A stretch of DNA of 47,008 bases from a virus, in IMG/VR virus record IMGVR_UViG_3300045747_000694, positions 106,165 through 153,172 of that record, one strand, 5' to 3'. The notes under the pieces were generated by a model that saw only the letters and a list, made by a program, of their open reading frames with translations, was not told the origin of the DNA and searched no databases. Positions 23,017 to 44,332 of this stretch are shown here, piece after piece. The position numbers were made by a program, and so were the translations under genes. Numbering within the stretch: position 1 is the stretch's first letter; each line of letters opens with the position of its first letter.

Positions 23017-23156
23017 CCAACTTCGTCTTCGGGCTCATCGAGAGGGGGAAGCTCTACCCCTCGACGGAGCGCCACGCCGGCATCAGGACCCTCTGGGTGA
23101 AGGTCGTCATCCGGGCGGTCTTCGATTGGGTCTCCTATCGGGACTCGACGAAGCTC

Positions 23157-23402: not shown

Positions 23403-25549
23403 TGGCCCTGTTGACGGTACAGGAGCAGATCTCCACCCTCCTCCAACGGAACCTCGTTGAGGACAAGACCAAGGGCACGCCCTCGGTCCAGGTGGAAGCT
23501 GCTGCCGTCATGGACTCGGTGGCTCTGAACTTCGTCTTCAACCCTCGCATCACTCTCTACTTCGCCCATCTCGCCAGGAACGCCCTGCTGAAGCTCGCCA
23601 CCGACGAGTGCAACGCGGCGCTGGCGCTGATGGAGACCATCAGAGATCTCGGCAACCAGAGCTACGCCCTCCACGACCTGAAGGCGCTCGAGCGCGCCAA
23701 GAGCTCCCTGCTCCAGATCGAGACGCAGGGGCAGATCCTCTCGACAGAGGGCGCCTTCAAGGGCTTCGACTCCGCCGCGAAGGAGTTCCTGGACAAGCAG
23801 CTCTCGAAGAACGTTCGTCGACAGGGGACTCAGGGTCTCGTGCGGCCGAGCATCGAGGCGGCCGCGGCACTCCCAGGGGACTACGCGACCCTGAAGAGCC
23901 TCCACGCCCAGGTCGACTCGCGGCTGGGCTACCTGACGAACGGCGTGCGAGCCTTCTCGACCTCGAGCATCGCCGGAACCCTGGGCCTCAACGCGGCCTT
24001 CAGGGTCAGGAAGGACATCGAGAGCATCATCTCCGACCTCGAGACGGATCCCACTGCCGCAGGCTCAAGAGAGTACGCCATCCGCATCAGCGCGGCTCGA
24101 ACGGCTCTTCGGCTTCTCGGTACGCCGCCGGGAGTCTTCGACCCGAAGGTCAGCACGCAGGACTCTCTTCCGTACGGCTACTCCCTCCACGGAGTCTCCG
24201 CGGTAGAGCCCCTCACGCTGACCTCCTCTCTTGGCCCCTGGCCGGTCAGCTACCTCACCCCTTTCGTCGTGACGAAGTACCCGGTGGCGGGGGCGCCTCA
24301 GGTCACTTCCAAGTCCTTCGCCCTGACCTCCTCGGCCCTCATGATCGGGACCATCAGCTCGACCTGGACCATCCCACCGCAAGGCGGACTCTTCTTCTCC
24401 TTCAGCGGTGTGCCGGTGCGTGTCGTTCTGAACTCCTCTACCTCGTCTGCGCTCAAGACGGCTGCCGACGTTGCAGCTGCCATCAACGCCCAGGCTGGTG
24501 GGTACGTCCAGGCGGAAGAGATCTGGGAGACGGGCGGCAGTAGGGTCGGGATCTGGTCGCACAGTGGGCTGGAGTTCAGCCTGACTGACCTGATCTCGGA
24601 GGACCACTCGGGCTCCACGAGCGGTAGCCCCACGCTCTGGACGAACTCGATGAGAGAGCTCCTCGGGCTCCCCAACGAGTCCACCGACCACCACGGCACC
24701 CTGAGCGCAGTGCAGATGAAGGACTGTCTCGACAGCCTTCTCGGCACGTCCGGTGCGATCTTCGACGTCGATGGCGACTACCTCGTGATGAGCGTCCCTC
24801 TTCTTCCTGGGGAGACCTTCAAGACCTCCATCCCTTGTGCGCTCCCCGCGCCCATCTTCGACAGCCCGGCAGTCCCGGCCGTCAGCTCTTCCGTCGTGCT
24901 GGTGGGGACGTACCTCGGCAAGGCCGTGACTCCCTCCGCCTATGGCTTGGTGGCCGCGGGCGACACCCTCTCCTCCCCCACCGGGAAGTCGGCCATCGCC
25001 TCCGTGGCGGACACCCTCACGCTCACGGACAGCCTTCCCATCTTCGACGGCCCCATCACCATCACGAGTGGCCTCGTCTTGATGTGGCAGCCTCTTCAGC
25101 TCGCACTTGATGCCTTCGAGAGCGTGTGGGCCAAGGACGGGAGCATCGCTCGATTGGACACCGTCATTGCTCCGCTCTACGGCTCTCCGACGCTGGCGCG
25201 GCGGAACGACGCCATGAAGGTCCTACAAGTTCTTGTAGATACTCTCCAGTCCTTGCAGACTGTCCTCTCCAGCTATCCCGTCTCCTCCGATGTCTCGGTG
25301 GAGAAGGCCATCGCAGAGGGGATCATGAGCACGTTGACGGAGAGGAAGTTCGACAGGGCTCAGTCCTTCCTCCTCCAGGGGCAGTTCGTGGAGGTCTTCT
25401 CTCTCGACTGGCAGACTGCCTCCTTCTCCGGTGAGCTCTTGGCGGCCGCTACCGACGTCGCCCAGAACGACCTCAACTGGCCGCGCGTCAACAACGACGA
25501 GCAGGTGGGCGTGCCGTACGCCACCGACGACTCCCTCGAGGTCCAGTGA
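23402..25549 (+). CDS. Large structural protein (715 aa), baseplate/tail-associated, function unknown
   Basis: Long GC3-biased ORF. Helical N-terminal half and beta-rich C-terminal half. Sits immediately upstream of the gp25-like and J-like genes. Confidence 0.75.
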   Translation: MALLTVQEQISTLLQRNLVEDKTKGTPSVQVEAAAVMDSVALNFVFNPRITLYFAHLARNALLKLATDECNAALALMETIRDLGNQSYALHDLKALERAKSSLLQIETQGQILSTEGAFKGFDSAAKEFLDKQLSKNVRRQGTQGLVRPSIEAAAALPGDYATLKSLHAQVDSRLGYLTNGVRAFSTSSIAGTLGLNAAFRVRKDIESIISDLETDPTAAGSREYAIRISAARTALRLLGTPPGVFDPKVSTQDSLPYGYSLHGVSAVEPLTLTSSLGPWPVSYLTPFVVTKYPVAGAPQVTSKSFALTSSALMIGTISSTWTIPPQGGLFFSFSGVPVRVVLNSSTSSALKTAADVAAAINAQAGGYVQAEEIWETGGSRVGIWSHSGLEFSLTDLISEDHSGSTSGSPTLWTNSMRELLGLPNESTDHHGTLSAVQMKDCLDSLLGTSGAIFDVDGDYLVMSVPLLPGETFKTSIPCALPAPIFDSPAVPAVSSSVVLVGTYLGKAVTPSAYGLVAAGDTLSSPTGKSAIASVADTLTLTDSLPIFDGPITITSGLVLMWQPLQLALDAFESVWAKDGSIARLDTVIAPLYGSPTLARRNDAMKVLQVLVDTLQSLQTVLSSYPVSSDVSVEKAIAEGIMSTLTERKFDRAQSFLLQGQFVEVFSLDWQTASFSGELLAAATDVAQNDLNWPRVNNDEQVGVPYATDDSLEVQ

Positions 25550-25830
25550 GCAACGCGCCCGACAGAGACACCAGGGAGATCCTCCACTCGGCGTTTGCCT
25601 TCGTGCGCTCCGTGGAGGCCAATCGGGCATCTGCCGCGATCACGATTGACCACGTCATCCAGCAGCAGGTGAAGTTCCTGAAGGCCGGAGAGATCCGCCC
25701 CATCGTCGATGCCTCTGGCTCCTCAACGGGAAGCCGCACCTCTCGGTACGACGAGATCAAGCAGCTCCAGGATCAGGTCAACAAGCTCGTCACGGTGGCC
25801 AGGGAGTACTTCGGATCGGTGACCTCATGA
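25546..25830 (+). CDS. Hypothetical protein (94 aa)
   Basis: GTGA-coupled to the upstream gene. Its own stop overlaps the next start (ATGA). Confidence 0.5.
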   Translation: MSNAPDRDTREILHSAFAFVRSVEANRASAAITIDHVIQQQVKFLKAGEIRPIVDASGSSTGSRTSRYDEIKQLQDQVNKLVTVAREYFGSVTS

Positions 25831-26474
25831 AGGACCTCCGCGTCGTCACAGCCAAGGTGATGCTCTCCATCCAGTCCATCTCCCCGGTGAGAGGGTTCTA
25901 CCCGCCCTCCATCATGGTGCAGGGCAAGGACCTCTTCCAGACCACCGAGGTCGAGATCAACGGGATCTTGGCGAAGGAGTTCATCATCCAGTCGCCGACC
26001 GTCCTCGTCGTCCGCATCCCTGATGGACAGGTGGGCCAGGTGCTGACCTCGGTCAAGGCCTACGCCCCGATCTCTCCCTCCTACGACAAGGCCGCCCTGA
26101 ACCTCGGCGTGGCTCGGCCCATCAAGTACATCACCGGCATCGACAGGCTGGTGCAGGCGTGGCTGCTCCTCTTCTTCACCTCTCCTGGCACCGACATCTT
26201 CTCGGTCAACAGCGGTGGAGGTGCGCGCAGCCTCATCGGGAAGACGACTGACGCCGGGCACCAGAGTGTGGCGGCCGACTTGGCCCTCTGCATCGACCGC
26301 ACGAAGATGGAGCTGATGAGGCTCCAGGCCAATGCTCCCTACTTGCCGATGGAAGAGAGGCTCATGAGCAGCAGCCTCGTCGGCGTCAACTTCAACAGGG
26401 AGTCCTCGACTCTCTTCGCGGACGTCTCGCTCATCAGCATGGCCGGAACGGCCGCACAGCTCTCCTTGGGGTAA
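25827..26474 (+). CDS. Baseplate wedge protein, gp25/GPW-like domain with an N-terminal extension
   Basis: LVQAWLLLFFTSPGTDIFSVNSGGGARSLIG and ALCIDRTKMELMRLQANAPYLP resemble the conserved GPW/gp25 core (L..L.T..G.R...P.fGs.l...EPR). Recognition is from memory, not from a search. Confidence 0.55.
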   Translation: MKDLRVVTAKVMLSIQSISPVRGFYPPSIMVQGKDLFQTTEVEINGILAKEFIIQSPTVLVVRIPDGQVGQVLTSVKAYAPISPSYDKAALNLGVARPIKYITGIDRLVQAWLLLFFTSPGTDIFSVNSGGGARSLIGKTTDAGHQSVAADLALCIDRTKMELMRLQANAPYLPMEERLMSSSLVGVNFNRESSTLFADVSLISMAGTAAQLSLG

Positions 26475-26477
26475 CGC

Positions 26478-29400
26478 ATGGCACAGGCCGAACTGAAGAC
26501 CTTCGTAGAGGACCGCCTTCAGGCGCTGGTCCCAGGCATCGACGTCTCGGCCGGGTCTCCCGCGCAGACGACCTTCGTCGATCCGCTGATGCAGTACCTC
26601 GGGACCGACCCCTTCGAGACGGACATCGACAAGTTCCTCTCGGACCGCTTCCGCCAGGAGTACCCCGACATCTACGCCGGCGACCCGAGCGCCATCCGCG
26701 ACCTCTTCGTGAAGCCGCTCATCACCTTCCTCGAGCCCATCAAGCGGGAGATCCTGACCGTCCGCAGGAACCAGTCGTTGCAGGACCCGGCGCTCCTCTC
26801 GGACGACGATGCCGATGCGCTGGTGGCCAACTTCTACGACCAGCGTGCGCAGGGCGCCCTCGCCGGCGGCACGGTCCGGGCCTACTACTCCAACCCCGCC
26901 AACGTCCCCATCGAGACCACGGTCCGCTTCTCCACGGCCGGCGGTCTCGCGTTCTTCCCTACGGCCCCCACCTCCATCACGGCGGAGGAGATGGTCTTCA
27001 ATCGGGACGGGACGCTCTACTACGCCGACATCCCGGTGAAGGCGGAGAAGGAGGGGGCCGCCTACAACGTTGGGGTCGGGACCATCGTCAACGTCGATGG
27101 CCTCTTCGGCATCGTGAAGGTCTCGAACCTCCAGGTCTTCCAGAGCGGGGCCGACAAGATCTCCACCGATGCCTTCGTCTCCCAGTCGCGCGAGGCACTG
27201 AACGAGCGGTCGCTGCTCAACCGCCGCGGCGCCGTGCCCCGGCTGCGGGATGCCTTCCCGGGCCAGCTGCGCGCCGTGCAGGTCATCGGGGCTCAGGACA
27301 AGGAGATGGAGCGCGACATCCTGGTGGGCCACACCAAGGGCCACACCTGGCTCACTGGCCGCGTCACCCTCTACGAGAGCATGGCCCTCGTGCAGGCTCG
27401 CACGGTCGATGATGGCGCCGAGTCGGCCCCCGTCGCCGGGGACACGCTCTACGTCTACCTCGACAAGACGACCTGGCCGTCCGGGATCTTGCAGAAGGAC
27501 AGGTTCGTGGAGCTCACCGTGGAGGAGACGATCCTCGACGGCATCGGCGGATCTGGGGCCTTCCAGTGCAGCTTCCTGGTGAGGTGGTCTGGCTCCCTCC
27601 CGACGGGCATCCTCGCTCCCCTGTCGGTGGAGGGGGGCTGCACGAGGAAGGGGACGATCTCCATCACCTCGATCCCAGGCATCGGAGCCCTCACGGCCGA
27701 TGTCCCGGACCAGTCGGTGCACATCTACGGGCACACCGACATCTACGTTCGCCCCACGGCCGACGTGGTGTCGAAGTCGGTGCTGTCTCCCGTCGTCGAC
27801 GCCTCCCCGGTCATGGAGTACACGACGCTCTCCACGGCGGCCACGGTGCCCACCAACTCGGTGCTGGACTCGGTGGGCCGAGACTTCGCGGTGGCCGGCG
27901 TCCTCCCCGGGGACGTCCTCTACATCGAGTCGAGTGACGCCGCGGGCACCTACACCATCGCCGACGTCACGGGGTCGGGTTCCGGATCGCGGCTCCTCCT
28001 CGCCACCAACATCGAGAGAGCGGCGACGAACGCCAGGTACCGGATCTCCCGTACCGTGAAGGTCGACCTCTTCAGCCCCAAGATCCCCAAGCTCCCCTTC
28101 TCCAACCTGCCGGCGGACGACCTCACCACGCAGATCGGGTCGCTGCTCTTCTCCTTCTCCACGAACACCGTCGACTACGGCGTCCGCATCGGGGACACGG
28201 TCCGCGTCACCTCGGGTCCGGACGTCGGGGACTTCACGATCACCGGCTTCGACGGCGTCCTCGGGGGCCGTGGGGTTCTCGTGGACCGTCGGGCCACGGC
28301 ATCCGTGGCCGGGGTCAAGTACGAGATCTTCACGCTCCTGGAGCCGGTGCAGAAGCCCCTCATCCGCCTCAAGGAGGTCATGCTCCTCGACTCCTCCAAG
28401 AAGGCCACGGGGGTCACGGTGCCTCCGGCGCTTCCGGTAGCGGTGCGGTCCCTGAGCGACTTCACCTCGGCCAGCGCCAAGGGGCGCAGCTACCAGAACG
28501 GCGGCATCGTCCTCCCGAAGCTCGACACGCTCTTCACCACGACGAACGTGCCCGCCATCAACGGGGACATGCGCTACTCGACGGGGAGTGAGCCGGCCGA
28601 CGGGGGCTCCTACAAGGCGTTCGAGCTCAACTACTCCGGGCATGTGGAGGGAGAGATCCTCGTCCCCTCCTCGGCCTACTCGGAGTGCTCCTGGTTCCTC
28701 GCCCTGGTGGAGGACGTCGATGCCGTCAGCGGGAAGCCGCCGGTGGTCTTCGAGGTTGGCGGAGTGCTCAACCTCTTGAGCGGGCCGAACAAGGGCGGCT
28801 ACCTCATCCGCGAGGTGAAGAAGGTCAGGTACTACCCGATCGCCACGCCGACCGTCCCCTACTGGCTCACCTTCGTCCGGATCCATGGGACGTTCCCGGT
28901 CGACACCTTCCGCTCGGTGATCGACTTCATCGCAGCCAACCCTGTGCCCATCACCGGCTTCCCCGGCATCCCGACACTGCGTGCCGAGATCGACGGGACT
29001 CCCGTGCTCGAGACGTGGTTCGGCGACTTCTGGGCCAACCTCCCGACCTGGGTGAACGGCTCCATCGGCCTGCTTGGCGGGTCCCCTCCCAGCACGACAG
29101 TGGCAGCCATCGACACGCTCCTGGCGACGGACTACGAGGTGGGCACTCCTGCGCGGGGCATCCTCCGCTCCTACTTCCAGCAGCCTACCCTCTTCACGCA
29201 GAACACCGCCGGGTCCCCGACCCCCACCGTCTACGACTTCAAGGCCGTCACGGGGGACATCCTCTCCTTCCGCCCGGACCCCTTCCGCTACGAGGAGCAG
29301 AACATCCTCCCGGCGCGCGAGGTCTCGGACGTCGACGTGTTCAGCTCCCCTCGAGACGTGCTGCCGTCGGTTCCGACGGCAGCCTCTGGGACGTCGGCCG

Positions 29401-30941
29401 TCTTCTCTCTCACGGACAAGCCGAGCATCTTCTCCATCGGGGTTCGTCCTGGCGACGTGCTCGAGCTGTACGAGGAGAAGCCCTTCTTCGACCCCAACGA
29501 CTACGCCTACCTGGTGGGGGTCAGCACGGAGGCCGACAGCCCTCGGGTGACGCGTCCTGCGTCAGCTCCCGCGTTCACCTCCATGCTGGGCGGGCTCCTC
29601 TTCTCCATCGTGGACGGCCCGGATGCCGGGCTCTACCGCATCGTCGACGTGCCGGACTCGTACACGCTGGTGCTCGACCGCCCCCTGACCACGTCGACTC
29701 AGGAGGTCCTCGCCCACGCTTCCAGCGTCTCCTATGGCTACGTCGGGACGGAGGACCGCATCGGCGCGCCTGGGATCGACTTCTCCCAGCACATCGACAG
29801 GTACGTCTCCCTCTACTGCGTGCAGGCGAGCACGTACCGCATCTACCTCGCTGGGACGTACCGCATCATGAGCGTCGTCTCGGGCGACGTCCACATTGCC
29901 GTGGTGGACCGCCCCACGCTCTTCGTCGGGGCGTACCAGGCGGATGCCAGGGCCTGCGTCGTCATCACGGATGCCCCTCCCTCCGCCCCTGAGGCCCGCG
30001 CCGGTGCACAGAGCGGGACCGGCACAGAGGTCGTCGGGGTTCGCCTGGCGCGCTTCTACCAGGACCTGCCCACTCTCCGGACCATCGTGTCGGTGGGGAC
30101 CAACATCACCACCTCCACGGTCACCGTCGACACTGCCTTCGGGGCTGGCATCAACAACCCCTACCGCATCTACCGGAAGGACATCCGGAGAGTGGGGGCG
30201 ATGGAGATGCTGGAGAACAAGGAGAACTCGCTCTACTACTTCGACACCGAGGTGCTCTCCCTCTCGTCGAGCCCGGCGGCGAACATCCCCGTCAACTCCT
30301 ACCTCGTGCCGAGGGAGGGGACCTTCGCCTCCAACGGGTACAAGCACATCGTCGATGACCGGACCCTGACCTTCTCGACCAAGGAGGAGGGGAAGCTCGA
30401 GCTCCCTCTTCGCATCATCCCCTCCTTCAGCGCCGACCGGCTGGACAACTCCCTCTCCATCCCAGGGGCCTCGCTCCAGATCACCTACGACATGTCGACG
30501 GTCGTGGACAGCGTCCAGACCTTCATCGGCTCTGTCGAAGACCGGGTCACCGCGGCGAACATGCTCGCCAGGCACTTCCTTCCCTCTTACGCCTCCTACG
30601 ACGCGACCTACATCGGGGGGTCCACCCCGGACATCGTCGCGAAGGACATCATCTCCTACATCGAGAGCCTCGCGGTGGAGACGCCTCTCGATGTCTCGGT
30701 GGTGCAGGACCTCATCGCCAAGCGGGGAGGGAACCTCCTCACGCCGTCGGCAGTCGTCACCATCATGCACGACTGGAGTCGGAGGATGTGGATGGAGATG
30801 TCGGCCAACCAGCTGGGCGGGACGGGCTCAGCGGTCCCCTACGACGGGTCCTCCCGGGTCACCTTCTTCATCCCAGGAGCGGACATCTCCCTGAAGACGT
30901 CCGAGCCCTACGGGGAGCGCATCAAGCTGGTCCGGAAGTGA
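26478..30941 (+). CDS. Very large baseplate J/gp6-like wedge protein (1487 aa)
   Basis: Position directly after the gp25-like gene. N-terminal region (FVDPLMQYLGTDPFETDIDKFL...LVANFYDQRAQGALAGGTVRAYYSNPANV...) is loosely reminiscent of Baseplate_J. Long beta-rich C-terminal extension. Confidence 0.6.
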   Translation: MAQAELKTFVEDRLQALVPGIDVSAGSPAQTTFVDPLMQYLGTDPFETDIDKFLSDRFRQEYPDIYAGDPSAIRDLFVKPLITFLEPIKREILTVRRNQSLQDPALLSDDDADALVANFYDQRAQGALAGGTVRAYYSNPANVPIETTVRFSTAGGLAFFPTAPTSITAEEMVFNRDGTLYYADIPVKAEKEGAAYNVGVGTIVNVDGLFGIVKVSNLQVFQSGADKISTDAFVSQSREALNERSLLNRRGAVPRLRDAFPGQLRAVQVIGAQDKEMERDILVGHTKGHTWLTGRVTLYESMALVQARTVDDGAESAPVAGDTLYVYLDKTTWPSGILQKDRFVELTVEETILDGIGGSGAFQCSFLVRWSGSLPTGILAPLSVEGGCTRKGTISITSIPGIGALTADVPDQSVHIYGHTDIYVRPTADVVSKSVLSPVVDASPVMEYTTLSTAATVPTNSVLDSVGRDFAVAGVLPGDVLYIESSDAAGTYTIADVTGSGSGSRLLLATNIERAATNARYRISRTVKVDLFSPKIPKLPFSNLPADDLTTQIGSLLFSFSTNTVDYGVRIGDTVRVTSGPDVGDFTITGFDGVLGGRGVLVDRRATASVAGVKYEIFTLLEPVQKPLIRLKEVMLLDSSKKATGVTVPPALPVAVRSLSDFTSASAKGRSYQNGGIVLPKLDTLFTTTNVPAINGDMRYSTGSEPADGGSYKAFELNYSGHVEGEILVPSSAYSECSWFLALVEDVDAVSGKPPVVFEVGGVLNLLSGPNKGGYLIREVKKVRYYPIATPTVPYWLTFVRIHGTFPVDTFRSVIDFIAANPVPITGFPGIPTLRAEIDGTPVLETWFGDFWANLPTWVNGSIGLLGGSPPSTTVAAIDTLLATDYEVGTPARGILRSYFQQPTLFTQNTAGSPTPTVYDFKAVTGDILSFRPDPFRYEEQNILPAREVSDVDVFSSPRDVLPSVPTAASGTSAVFSLTDKPSIFSIGVRPGDVLELYEEKPFFDPNDYAYLVGVSTEADSPRVTRPASAPAFTSMLGGLLFSIVDGPDAGLYRIVDVPDSYTLVLDRPLTTSTQEVLAHASSVSYGYVGTEDRIGAPGIDFSQHIDRYVSLYCVQASTYRIYLAGTYRIMSVVSGDVHIAVVDRPTLFVGAYQADARACVVITDAPPSAPEARAGAQSGTGTEVVGVRLARFYQDLPTLRTIVSVGTNITTSTVTVDTAFGAGINNPYRIYRKDIRRVGAMEMLENKENSLYYFDTEVLSLSSSPAANIPVNSYLVPREGTFASNGYKHIVDDRTLTFSTKEEGKLELPLRIIPSFSADRLDNSLSIPGASLQITYDMSTVVDSVQTFIGSVEDRVTAANMLARHFLPSYASYDATYIGGSTPDIVAKDIISYIESLAVETPLDVSVVQDLIAKRGGNLLTPSAVVTIMHDWSRRMWMEMSANQLGGTGSAVPYDGSSRVTFFIPGADISLKTSEPYGERIKLVRK

Positions 30942-31221
30942 CCCGGGTAGCCATCCCGGTGTAGGCGTCGTACTCCGTCTTGCACTCGACGCAGCGCAGA
31001 AGACGGTGGGGAAGGGCAGAGCCGGCAACGAAGGGACGAGAAGGGTCGACGAAGGCCTCGTAGGCGGGGCCCCTACAGTTCGGGCAGGAGGCACGCTGGA
31101 AGACCGCCTCCTCTCGCGCGATGAGAGGAGTGAGGATGTCCTGGTGGATCTTGGCGCCTGACGCGTCCGTCTCATCGAGGATCGCCCGGATCTGCGCTGG
31201 GTCCATCGGCTTGAAGTTCAT
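30922..31221 (-). CDS. Small zinc-ribbon protein (99 aa; CPNC...CVEC). The only minus-strand gene inside the structural operon.
   Basis: Minus-strand ORF with a strong GGAAGGA RBS 5 nt upstream of its ATG. Four Cys arranged as two CxxC pairs. Converges on and overlaps the 3' end of the J-like gene by 20 nt. Confidence 0.55.
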   Translation of the reverse strand: MNFKPMDPAQIRAILDETDASGAKIHQDILTPLIAREEAVFQRASCPNCRGPAYEAFVDPSRPFVAGSALPHRLLRCVECKTEYDAYTGMATRVTSGPA

Positions 31222-31284
31222 GTTCCTTCCCCCGGTGTGCCCTGAAGTCTATACTCGTTCCACCTTGAACTTCATGGACTTCTA

Positions 31285-33558
31285 GTGCCTCTCCGACTCG
31301 TGAACACCGTGCCAGGGAAGAGCCAGGAGGCCATGTGGCCCGGTGGCCCCTACCGCTTCGGCCTTCGCTCCGTGCCCCCGTCTGCTCGAGTGGCGCTCGG
31401 AGGTACGCTTCTGCACGTCGGCACCTCCGATGTCCGACGGCACCCTACCAACCTTCCCGAGACGGATGAAGTCCTCATCGCGTACGGCTCGGAGGTCTCC
31501 TTCCGCTCCATGGAGCACCTCTCTCCTGAGGTCTCCGGGGTGTGCACCGTGGCGGAGAGCTCGAGCTCCCTGTCCCTGACGAGAGTCGGCGGCAACCCCT
31601 ACGGGAAGAGCGTCTACGAGGTCAAGCAGCCCCTCCCGGTGAGCGCCAACGTCATGGGGCACGTGAGGCTTCGCAAGGAGGCATGGCCTCTCTCGCAGCC
31701 CGACTGGTTCTACAAGGCCAACACCGCCAGCCCCTACGTCGGGCTCCGCCACAACCAGTACACCTCGGGGGTCGATGTCTTCTTCCAAGGCGGCGGGTCG
31801 CCAGGCCTCTGGATCGTGGGGCCCCTTCAGGCCTTCCAGCAGGTCCGGTACTACGAGCACTTCGTCGCCTTCGACTGGGTGAGCCTGCCGAACGGGACCC
31901 CCATCGACATCTGGATCGTGGTCGCGGCCGACGGCTTCATCCCCCCGGCATCCCCGGCGTACGCGCCCACGGCGGAGGTGTGGGCCGGGGCCGGCTCCTA
32001 CATCCCCGCCAGCCGCCTCGTTCGCCTGCCCATCGGCAACTTCGGACTGGTGCCGGGCGGTGTCGCCGAGGACTCCGTCTCGCTGCTCTTCGGGAACGGC
32101 TCGGCCGTCGCCAGCACGATCAACATCGAGGACTGGGGCATCTACCCGGACTTCCGGGTGGCCATCGACAACGGAGACCCCCGCACCCAGCATGAGGTTG
32201 TCTTCTCGGCGGCGAGTCCTACGACGTACAGGGCCGCCACCAAGAAGGAGCCGGAAGGCTGGGACTTCGTGGCATCCGGGGCCGCTACCTCGAGGACGTT
32301 CGGGTACCAGCCTGGCAACCGGGCTGCCTCCCAGGCTCTCAGGGTGACGAAGACGGGGACGGGGTACGCGCGCTACGAGAGGGACGAGCCCATCCTCGCA
32401 ACCGCAACAGAGGCCTCTCTCGAGGTCTTCTGTGCAGGCCTTCCTACCACCTACGACGGCAACGTCTTCGGGGCGGGCATCGAGCTCGACGATGGGACTC
32501 ACGTCTTCCGGGTGATGATGCTGAGGGAGGGCACCGGGAGCTACAGTCTCGGCCTCGCTCTCGACGGGGCACCGAACGCCGACGCGTCGTACTTCAGTCG
32601 GTACGTCATCGACTTCCAGTCTCTTCGCATCATCCGCCTCACGGTGGACAAGGTGAGGGACGAGGTTCGTCTGTACGTCGACGGCAACCTGGTGCTCAGC
32701 GTCCCCCTCAGCACGACGGCATGGCCCGCCACCGTGGGGACTCCTGCGGCGAGGATGGGGCACCTCATCAACGTCAACTCCACCGGAAGGTTCGACCTCG
32801 TCCTCTCGAACCTCTACACGACGGCGTCCTCCTTCGAGACCGCGCCAGACGGCGGGCTCCCGCCGGCACCCTTCGTCCTCGCCGCCACCACCGGCAACAC
32901 GGCGACAGCGGGGCTCGTCCTCCACAAGACGGACTTCGGTGTCCCCTTCAGTGGGGCGGTCTACTCCGCTCCCATCGACATGGACCCGTACTGCGGTGCC
33001 TGGACCGAGTTCTCGGTGAAGGTCGTGCACTACTCCGACAGCCACGGCACGGACCTGGCCACGGTGTCCTCCACCGGCGTCGGCGTGAAGCTGAACTTCG
33101 GGCAGAGCCTCCTGACCCTCGTCTTCGTCGACAGCGGCTCCGCTGGGCGCTACGTCGGCATCGTCCCGGGGAGCGGCTCAATCGACGACCTCGTGAACCA
33201 GACGCAGTTGGGGAGGAAGTTCTCGACCCCATTCGACTGGACGGAGAAGCAGACCTACCGCCTCCACTACAAGCCCTACGAGTCGATCGAGGTCTGGGTG
33301 GGGAGCGTGGTCTCGTCTCCCCAGATCGTGATCCCTTGGAGCGATGGCTTCGACATCCCGGCCATCACCCTCGGGACTTCGGGGATCACCTTCGGCCACA
33401 TCTCTTCGGACGAGTCTGGGCAGAGCGAGTGGGACTTCTTCCGCTTCGGCGGCCCGACCGGCTACGACATCAACGTCGAGCAGCTCTTCTCGGCGGACCC
33501 CGCCCCGTACCACTACGGCGGCCAGTCCGCCTACCTCTTGCAGTTCCTCGACGGGTAA
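31285..33558 (+). CDS. Large baseplate/tail protein (757 aa) with a probable concanavalin-A-like (LamG-type) lectin domain
   Basis: Segment FQSLRIIRLTVDKVRDEVRLYVDGNLVLSVPL is typical of LamG/ConA-like folds. Start ambiguous (GTG 31285/31300/31309, or ATG 31333 preceded by AGGAGG with a short spacer). Confidence 0.7.
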   Translation: MPLRLVNTVPGKSQEAMWPGGPYRFGLRSVPPSARVALGGTLLHVGTSDVRRHPTNLPETDEVLIAYGSEVSFRSMEHLSPEVSGVCTVAESSSSLSLTRVGGNPYGKSVYEVKQPLPVSANVMGHVRLRKEAWPLSQPDWFYKANTASPYVGLRHNQYTSGVDVFFQGGGSPGLWIVGPLQAFQQVRYYEHFVAFDWVSLPNGTPIDIWIVVAADGFIPPASPAYAPTAEVWAGAGSYIPASRLVRLPIGNFGLVPGGVAEDSVSLLFGNGSAVASTINIEDWGIYPDFRVAIDNGDPRTQHEVVFSAASPTTYRAATKKEPEGWDFVASGAATSRTFGYQPGNRAASQALRVTKTGTGYARYERDEPILATATEASLEVFCAGLPTTYDGNVFGAGIELDDGTHVFRVMMLREGTGSYSLGLALDGAPNADASYFSRYVIDFQSLRIIRLTVDKVRDEVRLYVDGNLVLSVPLSTTAWPATVGTPAARMGHLINVNSTGRFDLVLSNLYTTASSFETAPDGGLPPAPFVLAATTGNTATAGLVLHKTDFGVPFSGAVYSAPIDMDPYCGAWTEFSVKVVHYSDSHGTDLATVSSTGVGVKLNFGQSLLTLVFVDSGSAGRYVGIVPGSGSIDDLVNQTQLGRKFSTPFDWTEKQTYRLHYKPYESIEVWVGSVVSSPQIVIPWSDGFDIPAITLGTSGITFGHISSDESGQSEWDFFRFGGPTGYDINVEQLFSADPAPYHYGGQSAYLLQFLDG

Positions 33559-33561
33559 CCG

Positions 33562-36500
33562 ATGGCGACCTTCAACTCAGGAGGATTCGGAACCGTCTCG
33601 TCCCTGGTGGAGAGGCCGACAGCCGTAGTCGTTGGCCTGCCCTCGGTGGCTGTTCTTGGGGCAACGGTTCGGCTCGACGGGTCGGGGAGCGTCAACCCCA
33701 CCACCACCGAGCTCGTCTACACGTGGGCCATCACCGCGGCGCCCATCGGGTCGAAGACCCCCTACGAGCCCTTCAAGCAGATCACCGAGGACTGGTCCTC
33801 TGTCTGGTTCTCCCCGGACCTCGTGGGCGAGTACATCATCGAGCTCACCGTCTCCTCCGGCAACTTCGAGAGCAAGGCGCAGACGAGGATCTCGGTCCGC
33901 GCCATCCTCATCCCGGACGGCCGCGCCATCGTCCCGGACGGCAAGTTCATCTGGAGCTACCTGCGCGACGTGTGGCAGCAGGTGGAGGACAGGCAGATCT
34001 TCGAGACCCTCTGGTCGGCTCTCATCCAGATCTGCGGTGCCGAGCTGCTGAAGCTCTACCAGTTCGACTTCAACAAGAGCATCAGGGACATCCAGGAGAA
34101 GATGCAGCGCCGGTGGCTGGCCTACGAGCCGCGGCTCGAGCTCGACCCCGCCGGCATGACCGCCTTCCTTGGGAACGAGGAGGCCGGGCAGGGAGGCTCC
34201 ACGCAGGCGCTGGGCAGGGAGGCGAAGGCCGTCATCTTCGCCTCCAACGAGCTCATCGTGGTCGAAGGGTCCGTCATCGCCGACGTCCCCCCTTACCTCG
34301 ACATCCTCTACAGCCGCTCCTCTTCGAACGTCGGAGAGTACCGGACCATGGGGACGAACGCCGGAGCCACTGGCTACCGGATCAACGGGAGCATCCCCTC
34401 CACAACGGCCGACCGCGTCCCCGGGCCGACCTCGGTGTTCACCCCGCAGTTCCCCTTCCAGTCGCGGACGTGGGCTCTCCAGGCCCCGCCGGCTCCTCAG
34501 TACGCGCTGAAGATGTCGATGTACCCGCCAACGGTGGACGAGCTCTCCGACATCTACAGTGTGGCGGGGTCCATCGGGGATGTCCGGGTCGGGGACGTGG
34601 CGTACATCGCGACGGGCGTCAACGTCGGCTTCTACCGCATCACCGCGTCCACGGGCATCTTCATCGAGGTGGACCGCGCCCCGCCGAGCTCTTCCCAGCC
34701 CTCGGACCAGGTGATCATCTTCCGCCCGGTGGGCATCAAGTTCGCTCCCCTCCCGGGGGCCGTCTCGACGAGCTTCACCGTTCCGCAGGCCACCCCCGCT
34801 TCCGCCATCGCCAACCTCGCCAAGGGTCGGCTCATCACCATCGGCGGCAGGGCCTACCCTGTCCTGCGCTCGACGCTCGACATCCGCCAGCCGGTCCCGA
34901 CCTTCATCATCACGACGGACGACTCGGAGGTCGTGACTGGCCGGTCGAACCTGAACTGGCGAGTGCCCAACACTCTCGTGTCCCCGACCGTGGACTTCGA
35001 GGCGAAGGGCGTAACCTCCGGAGACCTGCTCCTCTTCGACGTCAGGATGGAGGGCGGGAGCGGTGTCGCTCAGGTGGCGGCACAGGTCATCGGGGTGCAC
35101 GGCTACAGGCTTGCCTTCGTGGTGACGACCGCGGTGCTCTCCCCCGGAGAGGGCTACACCGTCTCGGACTCGACCATCGCCGAGGCCTTCGGTGCTCTCG
35201 GCATTCGCTCGGTCACCATCTCTCCGACTGGGGAAGTGTCCTTCTCGGGCGACGCGGCGGTGCTCTACACCTTCATCAAGAGCGGCCTCTTCGCACAGCA
35301 GTTCTGGAACACGGAGATCGACCTGTCGACCGGCTTCGTCACGCCGGTGGGCCGCTTCTTCGTCACCCCTCGTGCTGTCATCCGGAACAGCAAGATCCCG
35401 GTGGACGACACGGTCTTGTCCGTGCCCGTGCTCCAAGAGTGGGTGGCGCAGCCAACGCTCGTCGAGAAGGACGGGAAGGTCTACCAGAAGAAGGGTGATG
35501 TCGAGTACGAGCTCCCACGGCGGCCCGTGATGCTGGTGGAGGGGAACGACTACCTCACCGACGGCACCACTGCCTTCGATGACACCGTCCCGTTCCTCAC
35601 TGGGACCGCCACGCTCGAGGTGGAGGGGGCCGGCTTCCTCTCCCGGCAGGTGGCTCCTGGGGACAAGGTGTCCATCCCCACCGCCGTCAGCCTGAACCTG
35701 CCCTACATCGTCGTGGAGGTGCTGTCTGAGGACAAGCTCCTGCTCTCGACGATGATCCCGGCGCTGCTCGTGCCCGTGACCACGGAGAGGGTCGTCGTCA
35801 CGCGCAGGGCGGGCGGCAAGTACCTCAGGCTCCTTCCCGGCGGGTTCACCGCGGCGAAGCCTGCCCCGGATCGGTTCTGGGCCGAGGTCAGCTACTTCGA
35901 CAACTCGGACGCCATCGAGGCGAACTTCGGCATCATGGTGGGCCTCAAGAGAGAGGACCTCGACAAGATCACCACGCGGGTCTCCTACCGCCAGGCGGTG
36001 GCAGGGCTGATGTTCGCCTACACCCGCGGCTCGACCATCGAGAAGGTGCGCCTCGGCGCTCAGATCCTGCTCGGCCTCCCCTTCGCAGAGCACCGCGGCA
36101 TCATCAGGTCGATGGAGAGCAACTACCGCACCGACGCTTCTGGCGTCCCCATCCTCGGGCGGCTTCTCATCGAGGACGTCGATGACGTCGGAGTCCCGGC
36201 AGGCATCCAGCGCGTCTACACCTACCCCATCGACAACCAGTCCTCGGACCTCTCCGGCGTGGAGGTCAACCCAGCCACCGGGGCCATCTACGCGGTCGAC
36301 GACATCGTGGAGGCCTTCGCTCCTCTGGCGAAGGGGGTCGGGGTCAGCGACTACCTGACGGACCCGCTCAACAGCCAGTCCTCCGGCATCTCGCAGCTCC
36401 AGAAGTTCCACTCCTTCAGGCTGCGGGCCAACGACAACCTCTTCAACATCGAGGAGATCACTCTCGTCTCTTCGTTCCTCCGTCGCATCACCCCGTCCTA

Positions 36501-37851
36501 CGTGGCCTTCATCATCTCGGAGGTGATGCAGTTCGGGGATGATGTCTCCGTCCTGGACTCCGTCGCGATGGTGCTCAGCCGTGGCGGGAGGTGGGGCGGG
36601 CTCGCCGGCCTCAACGACAACGTGGGGACCGGCCTCGGCACTCCCTTCATGTTCGACCAGATGGACTTCTCGGGCCACCACCTGATCCGCTGGGACGATG
36701 GCGTCTTCAAGCTGCGCCGGTCAGGGAAGGACGCCGTCGTTGCAGACGTCGACCACGTGACCGGCACGGTCAGCTTCTCGGGAGACATCGTCTCCACGGT
36801 CATGCCGGGCGCACTCATCAAGGTCGGCGACTACGTCATCTTCGGAAGCGGCCCGAACGCGGGGATCTACCCCATCACGGTGGTGACGGAGGGCGTGGGG
36901 GTGACCGTCGATACGACGGGGAAGTCGCTCACGTCGGGCATCGACCAGCTCTTCCTTGTCGCCAGGAAGATCAGCGAGGTCATCCGCTCTGGTCTCTGCA
37001 ACCGCATCCAGATCGTGGACGCCAGCGGGGTCATGGGGACAACGCGGTACGGGACCAACACCACGGACCCCTACGGCTTCGTCATCGACGCGGGGGACGT
37101 CATCGCCGACATCCCCAGCTCTGCTACGCGAACCGCACGATTCACGGTGACAGGGAACGTCTTGGACGGGGTCATGCCGGGAGACTGGCTCCTCACCTGC
37201 GGAGGTCGGCTCCTCATCACGGATGTGCAGGCCATGATCGTGACGGTCATCGGAGAGACAGACTTCACGCCGGAGGGGAACGCCCCTTACGTCATTGTCC
37301 GCCCCAGCCTGCTCTCTTCCCCATCGGAGAGCTCGTGGTCCATCGTCTCGGACGGCTCTTCGTACTCTTGCGACGATGACCTTCGGCTGATGGCCGACCC
37401 GGGCGACTACCTCGAGGTCGTGTCCCCTACCGGCTTCGCCGAGGTCTATGTCGTCGATGCGAAGTGGAACAACTACCTCCCCGTCCTCCCGGCGGACACC
37501 TACACCGTCCGGCTGAAGAAGAAGAACCGGCCGCAGGGGCCCCTCGGCTTCGACTTCATCCTGAGCGGCGACATCAACGACCAGGTGGACATCTACCTCC
37601 GGTCCCCGAACACCATCATCTCCGACGCCACGGGGACGATCACCATCCCGGCGCATGAGGCGCTCGACATGGGCGCGCAGATCGGGGACTTCATCCGCCT
37701 CTACGACATCACCCAGATCGACAACGGCTACGGCCCTGGGGTCTACCCAATCGCCTCCATCGCTGCCAGCGGAGGAGATGACGTTGTTGTACTCTCCGGC
37801 GGCATGGTTGACGGTGGGACGACCGCCTGGTCCCTTCTCAGGAGACGATGA
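33562..37851 (+). CDS. Giant structural protein (1429 aa) with an N-terminal PKD-like Ig domain; baseplate/fibre-associated
   Basis: PKD-type motif VRLDGSGSVNPTTTELVYTWAITAAP. Long beta-rich body. Operon position between baseplate and fibre genes. Confidence 0.8.
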   Translation: MATFNSGGFGTVSSLVERPTAVVVGLPSVAVLGATVRLDGSGSVNPTTTELVYTWAITAAPIGSKTPYEPFKQITEDWSSVWFSPDLVGEYIIELTVSSGNFESKAQTRISVRAILIPDGRAIVPDGKFIWSYLRDVWQQVEDRQIFETLWSALIQICGAELLKLYQFDFNKSIRDIQEKMQRRWLAYEPRLELDPAGMTAFLGNEEAGQGGSTQALGREAKAVIFASNELIVVEGSVIADVPPYLDILYSRSSSNVGEYRTMGTNAGATGYRINGSIPSTTADRVPGPTSVFTPQFPFQSRTWALQAPPAPQYALKMSMYPPTVDELSDIYSVAGSIGDVRVGDVAYIATGVNVGFYRITASTGIFIEVDRAPPSSSQPSDQVIIFRPVGIKFAPLPGAVSTSFTVPQATPASAIANLAKGRLITIGGRAYPVLRSTLDIRQPVPTFIITTDDSEVVTGRSNLNWRVPNTLVSPTVDFEAKGVTSGDLLLFDVRMEGGSGVAQVAAQVIGVHGYRLAFVVTTAVLSPGEGYTVSDSTIAEAFGALGIRSVTISPTGEVSFSGDAAVLYTFIKSGLFAQQFWNTEIDLSTGFVTPVGRFFVTPRAVIRNSKIPVDDTVLSVPVLQEWVAQPTLVEKDGKVYQKKGDVEYELPRRPVMLVEGNDYLTDGTTAFDDTVPFLTGTATLEVEGAGFLSRQVAPGDKVSIPTAVSLNLPYIVVEVLSEDKLLLSTMIPALLVPVTTERVVVTRRAGGKYLRLLPGGFTAAKPAPDRFWAEVSYFDNSDAIEANFGIMVGLKREDLDKITTRVSYRQAVAGLMFAYTRGSTIEKVRLGAQILLGLPFAEHRGIIRSMESNYRTDASGVPILGRLLIEDVDDVGVPAGIQRVYTYPIDNQSSDLSGVEVNPATGAIYAVDDIVEAFAPLAKGVGVSDYLTDPLNSQSSGISQLQKFHSFRLRANDNLFNIEEITLVSSFLRRITPSYVAFIISEVMQFGDDVSVLDSVAMVLSRGGRWGGLAGLNDNVGTGLGTPFMFDQMDFSGHHLIRWDDGVFKLRRSGKDAVVADVDHVTGTVSFSGDIVSTVMPGALIKVGDYVIFGSGPNAGIYPITVVTEGVGVTVDTTGKSLTSGIDQLFLVARKISEVIRSGLCNRIQIVDASGVMGTTRYGTNTTDPYGFVIDAGDVIADIPSSATRTARFTVTGNVLDGVMPGDWLLTCGGRLLITDVQAMIVTVIGETDFTPEGNAPYVIVRPSLLSSPSESSWSIVSDGSSYSCDDDLRLMADPGDYLEVVSPTGFAEVYVVDAKWNNYLPVLPADTYTVRLKKKNRPQGPLGFDFILSGDINDQVDIYLRSPNTIISDATGTITIPAHEALDMGAQIGDFIRLYDITQIDNGYGPGVYPIASIAASGGDDVVVLSGGMVDGGTTAWSLLRRR

Positions 37852-38489
37852 GCATGAACATCAGCGATGCAGTTCGAGTCAGCGACGCCGGCCTTGTCCG
37901 GGCCGGCACCACTGAGCGCAGCTGGGGCTCCGAGAGGAGCGTCGTCGAGGTGAAGGGCTGGGTGAAGCTGGTCCTGCGAGAGCGGGGCAAGAAGGTCACC
38001 GAGCGCGAGGGGCACAACGTCTGGACCAACACCGGGCGCGAGTTCCTGACCCAGCGCATCAGCCTCGACCTCGCCTCTCCCTCGAGCACCCTTCGGACGG
38101 ACGCGGTCGCCTTCGTCGGAGCCGGCATCGGGGCGAGCACGGAGGAGCCGGGGGTCCTGGCCTTGCAGGACCCGGTGGCCTACGACACCTCGCTCTTCCT
38201 CGCCGAGATCACGGGGGTGTCCTTCCCGGCCTACCCGGTCCGCACCACGGTCGAGTACCAGCGGACCTTCGCCGAGTCCGAGATCACCATCATCCCCGGC
38301 ACCGTCCTCATCTCGGAGCTCGGGCTCTTCACGAACGGCGACCCTGCCGGCACGCCCGCCAACGGCTTCGGCACCAGGAGCCGGGCCCTCAGCAGCTTCA
38401 CGGCGGCCCCCGTGGCGTACAAGAGCTTCGAGCCCGTGGCCAAGACCGAGAACATGCAGCTCGAAGTCTTCTGGCAGATCCGCTTCTAG
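37848..38489 (+). CDS. Tail-associated protein (213 aa); alternative start ATG 37854
   Basis: ATGA overlap with the upstream stop. The AGGAGA RBS is better spaced for ATG 37854. Confidence 0.6.
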   Translation: MSMNISDAVRVSDAGLVRAGTTERSWGSERSVVEVKGWVKLVLRERGKKVTEREGHNVWTNTGREFLTQRISLDLASPSSTLRTDAVAFVGAGIGASTEEPGVLALQDPVAYDTSLFLAEITGVSFPAYPVRTTVEYQRTFAESEITIIPGTVLISELGLFTNGDPAGTPANGFGTRSRALSSFTAAPVAYKSFEPVAKTENMQLEVFWQIRF

Positions 38490-38498: not shown

Positions 38499-41400
38499 AT
38501 GTCGATGGACTTCTACAGGCGGCCGCAGCTCGCTGGGACCGCACTCCGCTTCCCCGACTACCCTGTGCTGCGGGGGTCGGTGCACCGGCATGACCCCGAC
38601 GGCGTGTCGTCCGCCCCGTACTTCCCCCTCGCGGCGGGAGGGGACTTCAACCTCCTGGTGGACGACACCCCCTTCACCGTCACGCTGACGGCGAACCCTT
38701 CGGTGCAGACGGTCATCACGTCCGTCAACACGGTGATCTCCAGCAAGGGCTACGCCTACGACGAGGGCGGGGTCCTGCACATCCGCACCTTGTCGAAGAC
38801 CGGCAGCGTCGAGGTGACGGGGACCGCCTCCGTCGCTCTCGCCCTCGGCTTCGACCTGAGGCTCGGCATGCTGCGCACGTACGCCGGCGACGTGGCCAGC
38901 TCCGGGGAGGGTCGGATCAACAACCCCTTCGGCGCCACCATGCCCGTGCCTGGGGAGGGGCTCAACTCGGAGAGCTTCGTTCGGGCCCTGGCCCGCCTCT
39001 CTGCGAACCTGGACGTCCTGCTGTCGGACGGGAACAGGACGACTCCGCAGTTCGTGGAGTGGGGGACCGTCACCGCCATCGACGACACCTCGGGCAACTA
39101 CTCGCTCGTCACCATCACCCCGAGCGCTCCCTACGTCGGGCTTGGGGTCTCCAACGGCCTGGGCTCGCTGCACTCCGGCGTCACACTCGCCAAGGCCGCG
39201 ATCACCCCGTTCTTCTACCTGACCGCCGCTCTCGGCTACTACCCGTCCCCCCACCAGGCGGTGGGGGTGGTGAAGGCGACCGTCCTGGCAGACCTCACCG
39301 GGGCCGCGCCGTACGCCAACGCGGCCACCGCGGCCGGGCCGGGCAACGTCTTCGGCATCAACCTGGTCAAGGCTGGCCCCTATACCGTCGAGGAGGTTCT
39401 CGGCGGCCGGGTCGTCTACCGTGCTGGCGGCTTCGGTGCAGCTCGAGTGGGCGACTACGTCGAGATCCGCCCCGACGCCAACACCACGAAGATCCCGTGG
39501 GCCAACGACGGCATCCGCTGGAAGGTGGAGGACATCATCGGGGACGGACTGAGCCTGGCCCCTCTGTCGAGGGCAGAGCTCACCGACGCCGGGCTCTCGG
39601 GAGCCGGCGAGCGTCAGCCGGTCGTCAGCCTCAACGACAAGCGCGGCAACACCGAGAACTTCGGGTACCTCTACCTCTGGACCGGTCCCGTCATCGACAG
39701 CCCGAAGCTCGTGGTCTCTCCCCCCATGCCTGCCAGCGGCGTCGGCACGGTGGTGTGGGCGGCGATCCCGTCTTCCCCGCGCACGCGCGGGCACGGCGAG
39801 GGGATGAGCAACCCTGCCTTGAACATCCTCACGCAGGGGTTCCCGCACAACGATGTCATCATCTCCAAGGGGTCGATGGACCTCACGGTGGGCACGCTCA
39901 CCGTCTCCGGGATGGTGATCCGCAAGAACGGTCTCCACACCGACGTGAGCTCGACGCTCACGGGGCTGGGCAGCTACACCGGCTACATCGTCCTCACGAC
40001 CAGCGGCACGCCTACCCTCTCCCAGTGCAGCCCGCCGCTGCTTCCTGGCGGTGGCATCCCGCTCGCCAGGGTGGTCAGCGGGGCCATCACTCACGACCTT
40101 CGCATCGTGGGAGAGGTGGGCAGCTACGTCTCCTCGGGGATGACCTACGGGCAGCTCCCCAACCTCGATACGGCCATCCAGTACTGCTACCTGTGCCAGG
40201 TCTCGGTCAAGGAGATCGTTTCTCTCTACGGTGAGACGAGCCCCGCCGGCGGTTGGTTCGTGGAGAACAGCTCGCTCACCATCCGAGGGGCGTCTCCCTC
40301 CATCGTTCTCACGCGGAACGCGACCGACCCGCTCTTCACCACGACGACCTCGGCCAAGGTGATCCTCAAGAACTTGACCCTGCCGACCAGCGGCGAGCCC
40401 GCTCTGACGGCGCTCTTCACTGCCAACGCGGACACCATCTGGGCCGTCGACTGCTTCGATGCGTCTGGCCGGTTCATCTCTCTCGCCAACTTCTCCACCA
40501 CCAACACGTCGTACAGGGTGGGGATCTACGGCGGCAGCGGGGACTTCAACATCCGGGCGACGAACAACGTCCGCATCGGCGAGGGCGCGTCTTCCCTGTT
40601 GCTCGGGTCAACCGCCGCGAGCGTCTGGCTCGGCGCCAACGCAACCACCCTCGCCATCGGCGGAGCCAGCTCCCTCCTCACGTCCTACTGCATCACGCGG
40701 CTCCAGAAGGACACGAGCATCGGCCTGCTGACGGATGGCGTTACCTACTCCCTTACCGCCGCGGCCGTGACCCACACCACGAAGCAGGGCTCCATCGTCT
40801 TCCGCAAGGACGGCGGCTTCTCGGTCGAGCTCTACTACGACCGGGTGGCGACGCTGGTCGGTGGCGGCCTCGACGCGTCGGCGCTGCACTACCACACGGC
40901 CGCCAACATCGTGCCCACCACCGGGGCCTTCAACAAGATCCTGACGGCCACCGAGAACACGGTGCAGAAGGCCCTCGACAAGCTCGATGACCACACGCAC
41001 ACCACCTCGGACATCACCAACTGGGTCGCTCCGATGTTGCTTACGACGGATCAGACCGCCGCAGGCATCAAGACCTTCAGCTCGACGCCGAGGTCCTCCG
41101 CCGGAGCCCCGACGTTGGACTCGGAGCTCACGCGCAAGAGCTACGTCGATGACGCGGCTTTCATCGTGCAGAAGATCGCGCCCAACACCTTCGTCACCCC
41201 CTACTCCATCGGTGGTGACGGGTACACCATGAGCGCGGTTCACGACTCTGGGACGATCACCATCCCCGTTCTCTCTCTCCCTCACGATGTCTACGGGAAC
41301 AGGGCCACCCTGCGGCTCAAGTTCCAGGACAGCGGGGACGACAATGACTACGTTCTCCGGTTCACCCTCAACGGGGTGATCCACGCTGCCAGCTCGCTGA

Positions 41401-44313: not shown

Positions 44314-44332
44314 CCCTGAACAGCAGTGACAG

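Follow-up and report, generated by a model that had tools for sequence, protein, structure and literature searches.

A probable baseplate-wedge gene block with enlarged proteins in an uncultivated large-phage lineage distantly related to Salmonella phage Arash

Gene content and organization of the block

We analyzed a 47,008-nucleotide (nt) stretch of the IMG/VR virus record IMGVR_UViG_3300045747_000694 (hereafter, the window; all coordinates are based on a listing of its open reading frames (ORFs) and their translations), with the emphasis on a block of genes at 25827-37851 for which the original prediction, made by eye, had proposed a phage baseplate module built of unusually large proteins. 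The coordinates of the four plus-strand ORFs of this module and the sizes given for the three largest products, 1487, 757 and 1429 amino acids (aa), are reproduced exactly by the ORF listing; an additional ORF lies on the reverse strand:

25827..26474, plus strand: 215-aa gp25/W-like protein; ATG start; IPT/TIG domain (residues ~1-95) and predicted gp25 fold (~100-215)
26478..30941, plus strand: 1487-aa J/gp6-like protein; ATG start; matches to Pfam Baseplate_J and phrog_6
30922..31221, minus strand: 99-aa zinc-ribbon ORF between the J-like and LamG genes
31285..33558, plus strand: 757-aa all-beta LamG-fold protein; GTG start; assigned from an AlphaFold2 (AF2) model and Foldseek
33562..37851, plus strand: 1429-aa PKD protein; ATG start; PKD domain, core shared with Arash gp14, and repeats

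At the GC content of the window (~65%), long antisense ORFs occur alongside real genes, for example, those at 25773-28886 (minus strand, 1037 aa) and 33577-36681 (minus strand, 1034 aa). The plus-strand ORFs, and not the antisense ones, are the real conserved genes, as indicated by full-length homologs, recurring gene order and large homolog families. At least 120 full-length homologs of the 1487-aa protein were identified (1443-1632 aa, 40-76% identity), the gene order of the block is repeated in contigs from ENA, NCBI and IMG/VR, and a joined query of the 215-aa and 757-aa proteins retrieved 543 cluster representatives at E<=1e-3 (both families combined).

The baseplate genes lie close together, separated or overlapping by 4 nt; the single exception is a 344-bp gap after the J-like gene that contains the conserved reverse-strand gene; no promoter-like or terminator-like site was found in this gap. 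The 99-aa ORF that fills it is preceded by a strong ribosome-binding site, GGGGGAAGG, and encodes a CPNC...CVEC zinc-ribbon motif. A tblastn search detected this ORF on the opposite strand just after the J-like gene in 33 related loci, down to ~25% identity, with the cysteine pairs retained. This small protein is probably not a structural part.

The gp25-like and J-like proteins

The 215-aa protein is predicted to be a fusion of an N-terminal IPT/TIG Ig-like domain with a gp25-like domain. The AF2 model of this protein, built from a 67-sequence alignment (pLDDT 89.6), was compared with PDB structures using Foldseek, resulting in a match to the Photorhabdus PVC baseplate chain 9qgl_9A (E 6.6e-4, 196 of 215 columns) as well as to phage T4 gp25 (5iw9_B/5iv5_BD; probability 1.0, TM 0.55, rmsd 3.7 Å, 111 columns). 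Further matches include Afp9 (6rao_H), 9gtp_S, 7b5h_AI and 2ia7; gp25-like chains of the Streptomyces and Anabaena contractile injection systems (CIS) are among the hits. The N-terminal domain of the model matches IPT/TIG domains in the PDB, and the Pfam TIG profile scores slightly above its cutoff in the sequence (21.9 bits vs 20.9, residues 14-77). In profile searches with the 215-aa family, the gp25-like proteins Afp9, 9qgl_9A and 9euf_L were matched, Afp9 at E 0.0058 when the family profile was run against the PDB sequences. The gene ends at 26474, and the J-like gene starts at 26478, a layout that is the same in 37 related loci. In two distant loci, L043 and L045, the gp25-like protein is only ~140 aa long and lacks the TIG domain. 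gp25 is the protein that starts sheath assembly.

The 1487-aa protein matches the Pfam family PF04865 (Baseplate_J) above the gathering cutoff (23.5 bits vs 21.1, residues 121-234) and phrog_6, 'baseplate wedge subunit', with E 3.6e-14 (residues 79-245); PF04865 is also precomputed for some of the 120 listed homologs. The best match of this protein among the PDB sequences is diffocin TRI-2 (E 0.05), and a phmmer search of each target protein against the PDB sequences gave nothing useful. Thus, both by-eye assignments were borne out by the profile searches and, for residues ~100-215 of the smaller protein, by the fold. The claim of an oversized J also stands: the usual size of J/gp6 proteins is ~300-660 aa, and the window protein is 4.9 times as long as the 302-aa J of phage P2.

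Judged by comparison with gp13 of Salmonella phage Arash (see below), a central insertion of ~1,060 residues appears to separate the N-terminal part of the J core (residues ~50-283) from a C-terminal part (~1343-1437). There is no Pfam match to the C-terminal part (residues 1343-1437), and its alignment with the J proteins of distant loci (655-858 aa) is weak (14.7%). Profile comparison revealed in the insertion a repeat unit of 60-75 aa with the motif GDxLxIxxGxxxGxYxI that is also present in the 1429-aa protein. Three copies are located in J at ~455-530, 545-625 and 1016-1077, and residues 759-780 give an additional, shorter match, so that the insertion would contain at least three copies, and probably four. 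The 1429-aa protein contains at least four copies (~339-379, 675-749, 1086-1140 and 1369-1429), with weaker ones elsewhere. The size of the J-like protein appears to vary about four-fold across the lineage, given that it is 655-858 aa in distant loci (among L039-L059; measured from the start codon) and ~2,100-2,700 aa in L012, L014, L015, L018, L023, L024 and L040 (measured from stop to stop, with a maximum of ~2690).

Collinearity with Salmonella phage Arash

Salmonella phage Arash (180.8 kb) was identified, together with three Vibrio phages, in a tblastn search with two upstream window proteins. The J-like, 215-aa and 995-aa proteins yielded no tblastn match among 50,697 phage records. Profile comparisons with hhalign showed that the window is collinear with Arash gp6-gp15:

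484-aa protein vs Arash gp6: 98.6%
995-aa protein vs Arash gp8 (cell wall hydrolase): 94.5%
285-aa protein vs Arash gp10 (sigma-like): 99.9%
215-aa protein, residues 86-215, vs Arash gp12 (168 aa): 97.2%, E 3.9e-11
J-like protein, residues 51-280, vs Arash gp13 (528 aa), residues 22-268: 97.4%
J-like protein, residues 1343-1437, vs Arash gp13, residues 400-499: 92.9%
1429-aa protein, residues 769-1020, vs Arash gp14 (723 aa), residues 160-391: 95.6%, E 1.2e-8
213-aa protein vs Arash gp15 (164 aa): 87%, E 4.1e-6

Arash (OQ632216) is thus the closest cultured relative, with the adjacent genes gp12-gp13-gp14-gp15 matching those for the 215-, 1487-, 1429- and 213-aa proteins. In the Arash record, these four genes are annotated only as 'structural protein'. 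Arash is a lytic myovirus with a contractile tail observed by transmission electron microscopy, and all four products were detected in virions by liquid chromatography-tandem mass spectrometry (PMC10585845).

The 757-aa and 1429-aa proteins

In 18 homologs, the N-terminal sequence (M)xLRLVNTxPG is conserved, in favor of the GTG start assigned to the 757-aa gene; the JGI call for this gene (P0126, 722 aa) starts 35 codons too late. The AF2 model of the protein, built from a 51-sequence alignment (pLDDT 92.7, pTM 0.87), is all-beta and consists of an N-terminal beta region (~1-300) followed by tandem ConA/LamG-type jelly rolls (~330-515 and ~530-757). In agreement with this architecture, profile comparison shows that residues 348-510 and 540-721 are homologous (98.2%), that is, the protein includes an internal duplication. 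The fold neighbors in the PDB include the sialic acid-binding lectin domain of the Vibrio cholerae sialidase (2w68_B, TM 0.73, rmsd 3.5 Å), laminin LG, neurexin LNS and botulinum neurotoxin Hc domains (E 1e-9 to 1e-6; 1.5e-9 for laminin LG1-3), and accessory domains of GH43 enzymes. In the BFVD database, the model matches phage ConA-like lectin/glucanase and LamG proteins, putative adhesins and minor tail proteins, with E values down to 1e-14. At the sequence level, there is no match to LamG or any other Pfam family in either 18 or 51 homologs, and PHROG and PDB-sequence profile searches were likewise empty. Thus, the ConA/LamG-type lectin domain claimed in the original prediction is supported at the fold level, where two such domains are recovered, and carbohydrate binding by LamG-type appendages is plausible, if putative.

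The 757-aa gene was found by BLAST in only 17 of 59 loci, and in locus L028, J and the gene after it have no copy between them; no match to this family was detected among Arash proteins gp4-gp17. The place of the 757-aa gene directly after J is specific to part of the lineage. Because the protein is all-beta, has no Arash counterpart and is missing after J in L028, it is best described as a lineage-specific accessory addition and not an equivalent of I/gp7.

In the 1429-aa protein, a PKD domain (~20-113) is followed by the core shared with Arash gp14 (~770-1020) and the repeats described above. The originally proposed N-terminal PKD domain holds at the family level, with 17 of 29 homologs matching PKD_4 (best E 5.6e-8), 16 of the 29 matching K319L-like_PKD and the family profile recovering collagenase PKD domains at E 1.3e-4; the copy in the window itself is below threshold for K319L-like_PKD (14.3 bits vs a cutoff of 27, E 0.042). 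The rest of the protein has no match in the libraries scanned. Direct Pfam, PHROG and NCBIfam scans of the 757-, 1429-, 715- and 94-aa proteins gave nothing above threshold. Residues ~125-190 form another conserved stretch, with a weak collinear match (12.8%) to Arash gp14 29-84. A gene for a 1429-like protein directly follows J in L028, as does the gene for a homolog of its core in Arash and in distant loci; in the window, the 757-aa gene and the antisense ORF stand between the two. Given the Arash gp14 core and the repeat domain in common with J, the 1429-aa protein qualifies as a candidate third wedge subunit more readily than as a fiber.

The fiber or spike is more likely to be encoded downstream, a short way beyond the 25827-37851 block:

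38499..41756, plus strand: 1085-aa candidate tail fiber/spike; phage matches at residues 844-947

Residues 844-947 of this protein match Streptomyces phage proteins (12 records, E 5e-5 to 5e-3, with a tailspike annotation in two of the ten listed), which are its sole cultured-phage matches, and its N-terminal part is retained in 12 loci. It appears to be a better fiber/spike candidate than the proteins inside the block. The Streptomyces phage matches give a weak hint of either an actinobacterial host or a widespread fiber motif.

Phage origin

Relatives of the J-like protein lie on contigs that cluster at 195-204 kb. Relatives are encoded in 57 IMG/VR viral loci, one is located in an NCBI metagenome-assembled genome (MAG) assembly, and none was found in 185,579 GTDB species genomes. 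At 44332-47008 (minus strand), extending to the end of the window, there is a tRNA array with 25 tRNA genes predicted by ARAGORN, 23 of which are confirmed by Rfam. A 256-aa protein encoded at 42462-43232 (plus strand) shows weak Rz-like spanin matches (phrog_13, E 8e-4), and accordingly lysis genes may follow the tail block. The contig sizes, the IMG/VR viral loci, the lack of relatives in GTDB, the tRNA array and the spanin-like genes together indicate a large uncultivated phage lineage with genomes of ~200 kb. The 'moraphage' described in PMC12619734 belongs to an unrelated lineage that is predicted to infect Bacteroidota.

A probable elaborated baseplate and alternative explanations

With a probability that we put at about 0.8, the block consists of baseplate-wedge and periphery genes of a contractile-tailed phage from this ~200-kb uncultivated lineage, distantly related to Arash. 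We infer that the wedge trio consists of the 215-, 1487- and 1429-aa proteins. Under this interpretation, the block is an elaboration of a known machine, with the usual wedge proteins enlarged and lectin-fold and PKD domains added, and not a new kind of system.

Several results weigh against this interpretation. The 215-aa protein has no match to PF04965 (GPW_gp25), and only one of 32 homologs matches this family, with E 0.06. In hhalign, the match of the 1429-aa family to P2 gpI has a probability of 0.1%, and the PDB profile search with this family recovered no gp7, TssG or Afp12 chain; because there is no similarity to gpI or to a solved gp7/TssG-type chain, the assignment of the 1429-aa protein as the third wedge subunit is positional. 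The 757-aa family is equally dissimilar to gpI (0.1%), and the hhalign comparison with single P2 tail proteins (W, J, I and others) gave no signal even for J, so that this test is too insensitive to show unrelatedness. Library and profile scans of the window recognized no sheath, tube, hub or spike gene, and therefore the case for contractility comes from the gp25 fold and the relationship with Arash. The matches to Arash, in turn, rest on single-sequence templates, and the Arash virion proteome comprises 116 proteins, including RNA polymerase and ribonucleotide reductase (PMC10585845); with so many enzymes in the proteome, detection in virions is weak proof of a structural role.

The roles assigned in the original prediction, W-J-(I-like)-fiber, would assign the part of an I/gp7-like third wedge subunit to the 757-aa LamG protein and that of a tail fiber to the 1429-aa PKD protein. 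The order of the gp25-like, J, 757-aa and 1429-aa genes indeed mimics P2 W-J-I-H, and two of the 29 homologs of the 1429-aa protein weakly match phrog_1980, 'tail fiber protein' (E 0.0054). We nevertheless consider this assignment unlikely and do not retain it. The model of the 757-aa protein is all-beta starting at the N-terminus, and this protein resembles neither P2 gpI nor any of Arash gp4-gp17 and is sporadic among the related loci. In Arash and distant loci, J is followed by a homolog of the 1429-aa core; the 1429-aa protein also has repeats in common with J, and a separate fiber/spike-like protein of 1085 aa is encoded downstream. An origin of the block from a bacterial extracellular contractile injection system (eCIS) or a tailocin would account for the best matches of the gp25-like protein being eCIS proteins (9qgl_9A and Afp9), for the diffocin match of J and for the relative in the MAG assembly. 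This origin is nonetheless highly improbable, considering that 57 relatives come from viral contigs and none from GTDB genomes, that contig sizes cluster at 195-204 kb, that both a 23-gene tRNA array and lysis genes of the spanin-like type are found in the window, and that the block is collinear with a part of the genome of the cultured lytic myovirus Arash that lies downstream of the Arash terminase gene.

It is just as improbable that the LamG and PKD proteins are non-virion secreted or cell-surface adhesins or enzymes, encoded by accessory genes in a tail operon. The absence of an Arash homolog of the 757-aa protein, the presence of sialidase and GH43 accessory domains among its fold relatives, and the insertion into this operon of a cassette for glycosyltransferase, methyltransferase and radical-SAM proteins (see below) would be compatible with such a role. 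On the other side, both genes show translational coupling within the wedge block, the core of Arash gp14, a protein detected in virions, is part of the 1429-aa protein, and the viral fold neighbors are annotated as tail proteins or adhesins, with no catalytic domain found. A more specific version of the wedge interpretation posits that all three wedge proteins were jointly enlarged by repeated insertion of a single 60-75-residue domain, yielding a 'decorated giant baseplate' with its own means of host-surface recognition. The wedge residue count is ~2.2 times that of Arash; we regard this version as unlikely, albeit less so than the alternatives above. The LamG, PKD and TIG domains and, in this sublineage, the collagen-like protein and the glycosylation/radical-SAM cassette could be part of the same architecture.

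Returning to the preferred interpretation, an elaborated baseplate wedge, the following scenario can be envisaged. Compared with Arash, the wedge proteins would have grown from 168 to 215 aa, from 528 to 1487 aa and from 723 to 1429 aa. The growth of J would be due to the ~1,060-residue insertion between its conserved N- and C-terminal parts. The gp25-like protein carries the IPT/TIG domain as an N-terminal extra, the third wedge protein would have gained the N-terminal PKD domain, and the LamG-type 757-aa protein would have entered the block between J and the gene for the third wedge protein. The LamG, PKD and TIG domains, displayed on the outside of the baseplate, could let the phage adhere, multivalently and with low affinity, to glycans or proteins of the host surface, with the 1085-aa protein serving as a fiber or spike. 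Binding of the receptor would then be transmitted via the wedge to set off contraction of the sheath, following the scheme of T4, P2 and Mu.

The main value of this analysis is in the annotation of Arash-like and related metagenomic phages: functional names can be given to genes that hundreds of metagenomic contigs list as 'hypothetical' and for which the orphan Salmonella phage Arash has no annotation beyond 'structural protein', and on this evidence, Arash gp12 can be annotated as gp25-like, gp13 as J-like and gp14 as a candidate third wedge subunit. The block also presents a case of baseplate growth, with a J core split by ~1,060 residues relative to its Arash counterpart, a repeat present in two wedge proteins, and Ig-like, PKD and LamG peripheral modules, and offers a route to host recognition in a widespread uncultivated large-phage lineage. 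The accepted model of the contractile-tail baseplate is unchanged.

Neighboring genes

Three further conserved genes flank the block:

23402..25549, plus strand: 715-aa protein encoded ahead of the wedge genes; conserved at this position in 20 related loci
25546..25830, plus strand: 94-aa small protein; overlaps both neighbors; kept in 12 loci
37848..38489, plus strand: 213-aa conserved small protein directly 3' of the 1429-aa gene; kept in 30 loci; phrog_5417, E 2.2e-7

The 715-aa protein has no match in Pfam, PHROG, NCBIfam or the PDB sequences (family profile included), and its position suggests a role as hub, spike or tape measure. No family match was obtained for the 94-aa protein in Pfam, PHROG and NCBIfam scans, and phrog_5417 is a family of unknown function. 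ARAGORN additionally reports a 97-nt tRNA-Arg at 37797-37893 (plus strand), spanning the junction of the 1429-aa and 213-aa coding regions; this prediction, which lies within coding sequence and is not confirmed by Rfam, was rejected as a probable false positive.

Farther upstream, the 484-aa and 995-aa proteins (2516-7048, plus strand) have no family matches; their Arash homologs are gp6 ('structural protein') for the former and gp8 ('cell wall hydrolase, structural protein') for the latter, and accordingly the 995-aa protein may be a tail-associated lysin or tape-measure-like. Inside the structural block, a 285-aa sigma-factor-like protein is encoded (8607-9464, plus strand; phrog_351, E 2.6e-8) that is kept in 28 loci and whose Arash counterpart, gp10, is reported in virions (PMC10585845).

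The tail-gene block also harbors the cassette mentioned above, at 10568-20909, which includes the gene for a 1267-aa collagen-repeat protein (Pfam Collagen, E 2.4e-122), with a local GC content of 72-78%, along with those for an FkbM methyltransferase, a GT1 glycosyltransferase and a radical SAM enzyme of the B12-binding type. Its remaining member encodes a 1061-aa protein in which a methyltransferase domain is joined to glycosyltransferase domains of family 2 and group 1. Outside the window, the enzyme genes were seen in no more than two relatives, the closest ones (L001 and L006), and the cassette is absent from L002. In the adjacent region (20315-23402, plus strand), the program-assigned starts are too early: homologs of the '598-aa' ORF are 306-404 aa long, and only the final ~110 residues of the '232-aa' ORF are covered by its homologs, with the gene in L001 called at 113 aa. 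Given these lengths and alignments, the true starts are likely to be near 20860 and 23061. Two proteins of this region show weak matches to CarboxypepD_reg-like beta-sandwich domains.

Comparison with known systems

The gp25 fold and the Baseplate_J domain that are present in the block are also found in the T4 gp25-gp6-gp7 and P2 W-J-I sets, and in P2, the gp25-like gene is located directly upstream of the J gene, as it is in the window. The differences are in what has been added: an Ig-like domain in the gp25-like protein, an extra LamG protein between J and the third subunit, and a J that is ~2.3 times the length of T4 gp6 (660 aa), beyond the disparity with P2 J noted above. In addition, the third subunit of the window has no detectable similarity to P2 gpI.

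In contrast to the window proteins, those of Arash are much smaller. Arash gp12 has only ~25 residues before its gp25-like domain, too few for a TIG domain; the J core of gp13 lacks a large central insertion; and no LamG gene is present between gp13 and gp14.

The eCIS baseplates supply the best structural and profile matches of the 215-aa protein (Photorhabdus PVC 9qgl_9A and Serratia Afp9), although the identity is 14-18%. The alignment of 9qgl_9A over 196 of 215 columns suggests that the two proteins have the same layout, an N-terminal beta domain followed by gp25. However, the eCIS J-like proteins are not enlarged in the way the window J is, and the context differs, a large phage as opposed to a chromosomal injection-system locus.

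Finally, the closest parallels to the 757-aa protein are phage tail proteins with multiple LamG/ConA-like domains, such as a putative adhesin of Pseudomonas phage PaBG and minor tail proteins of actinophages in BFVD, which contain tandem jelly rolls and match at E 1e-14 to 1e-8; these proteins and the 757-aa protein are alike in fold and have no detectable sequence similarity.

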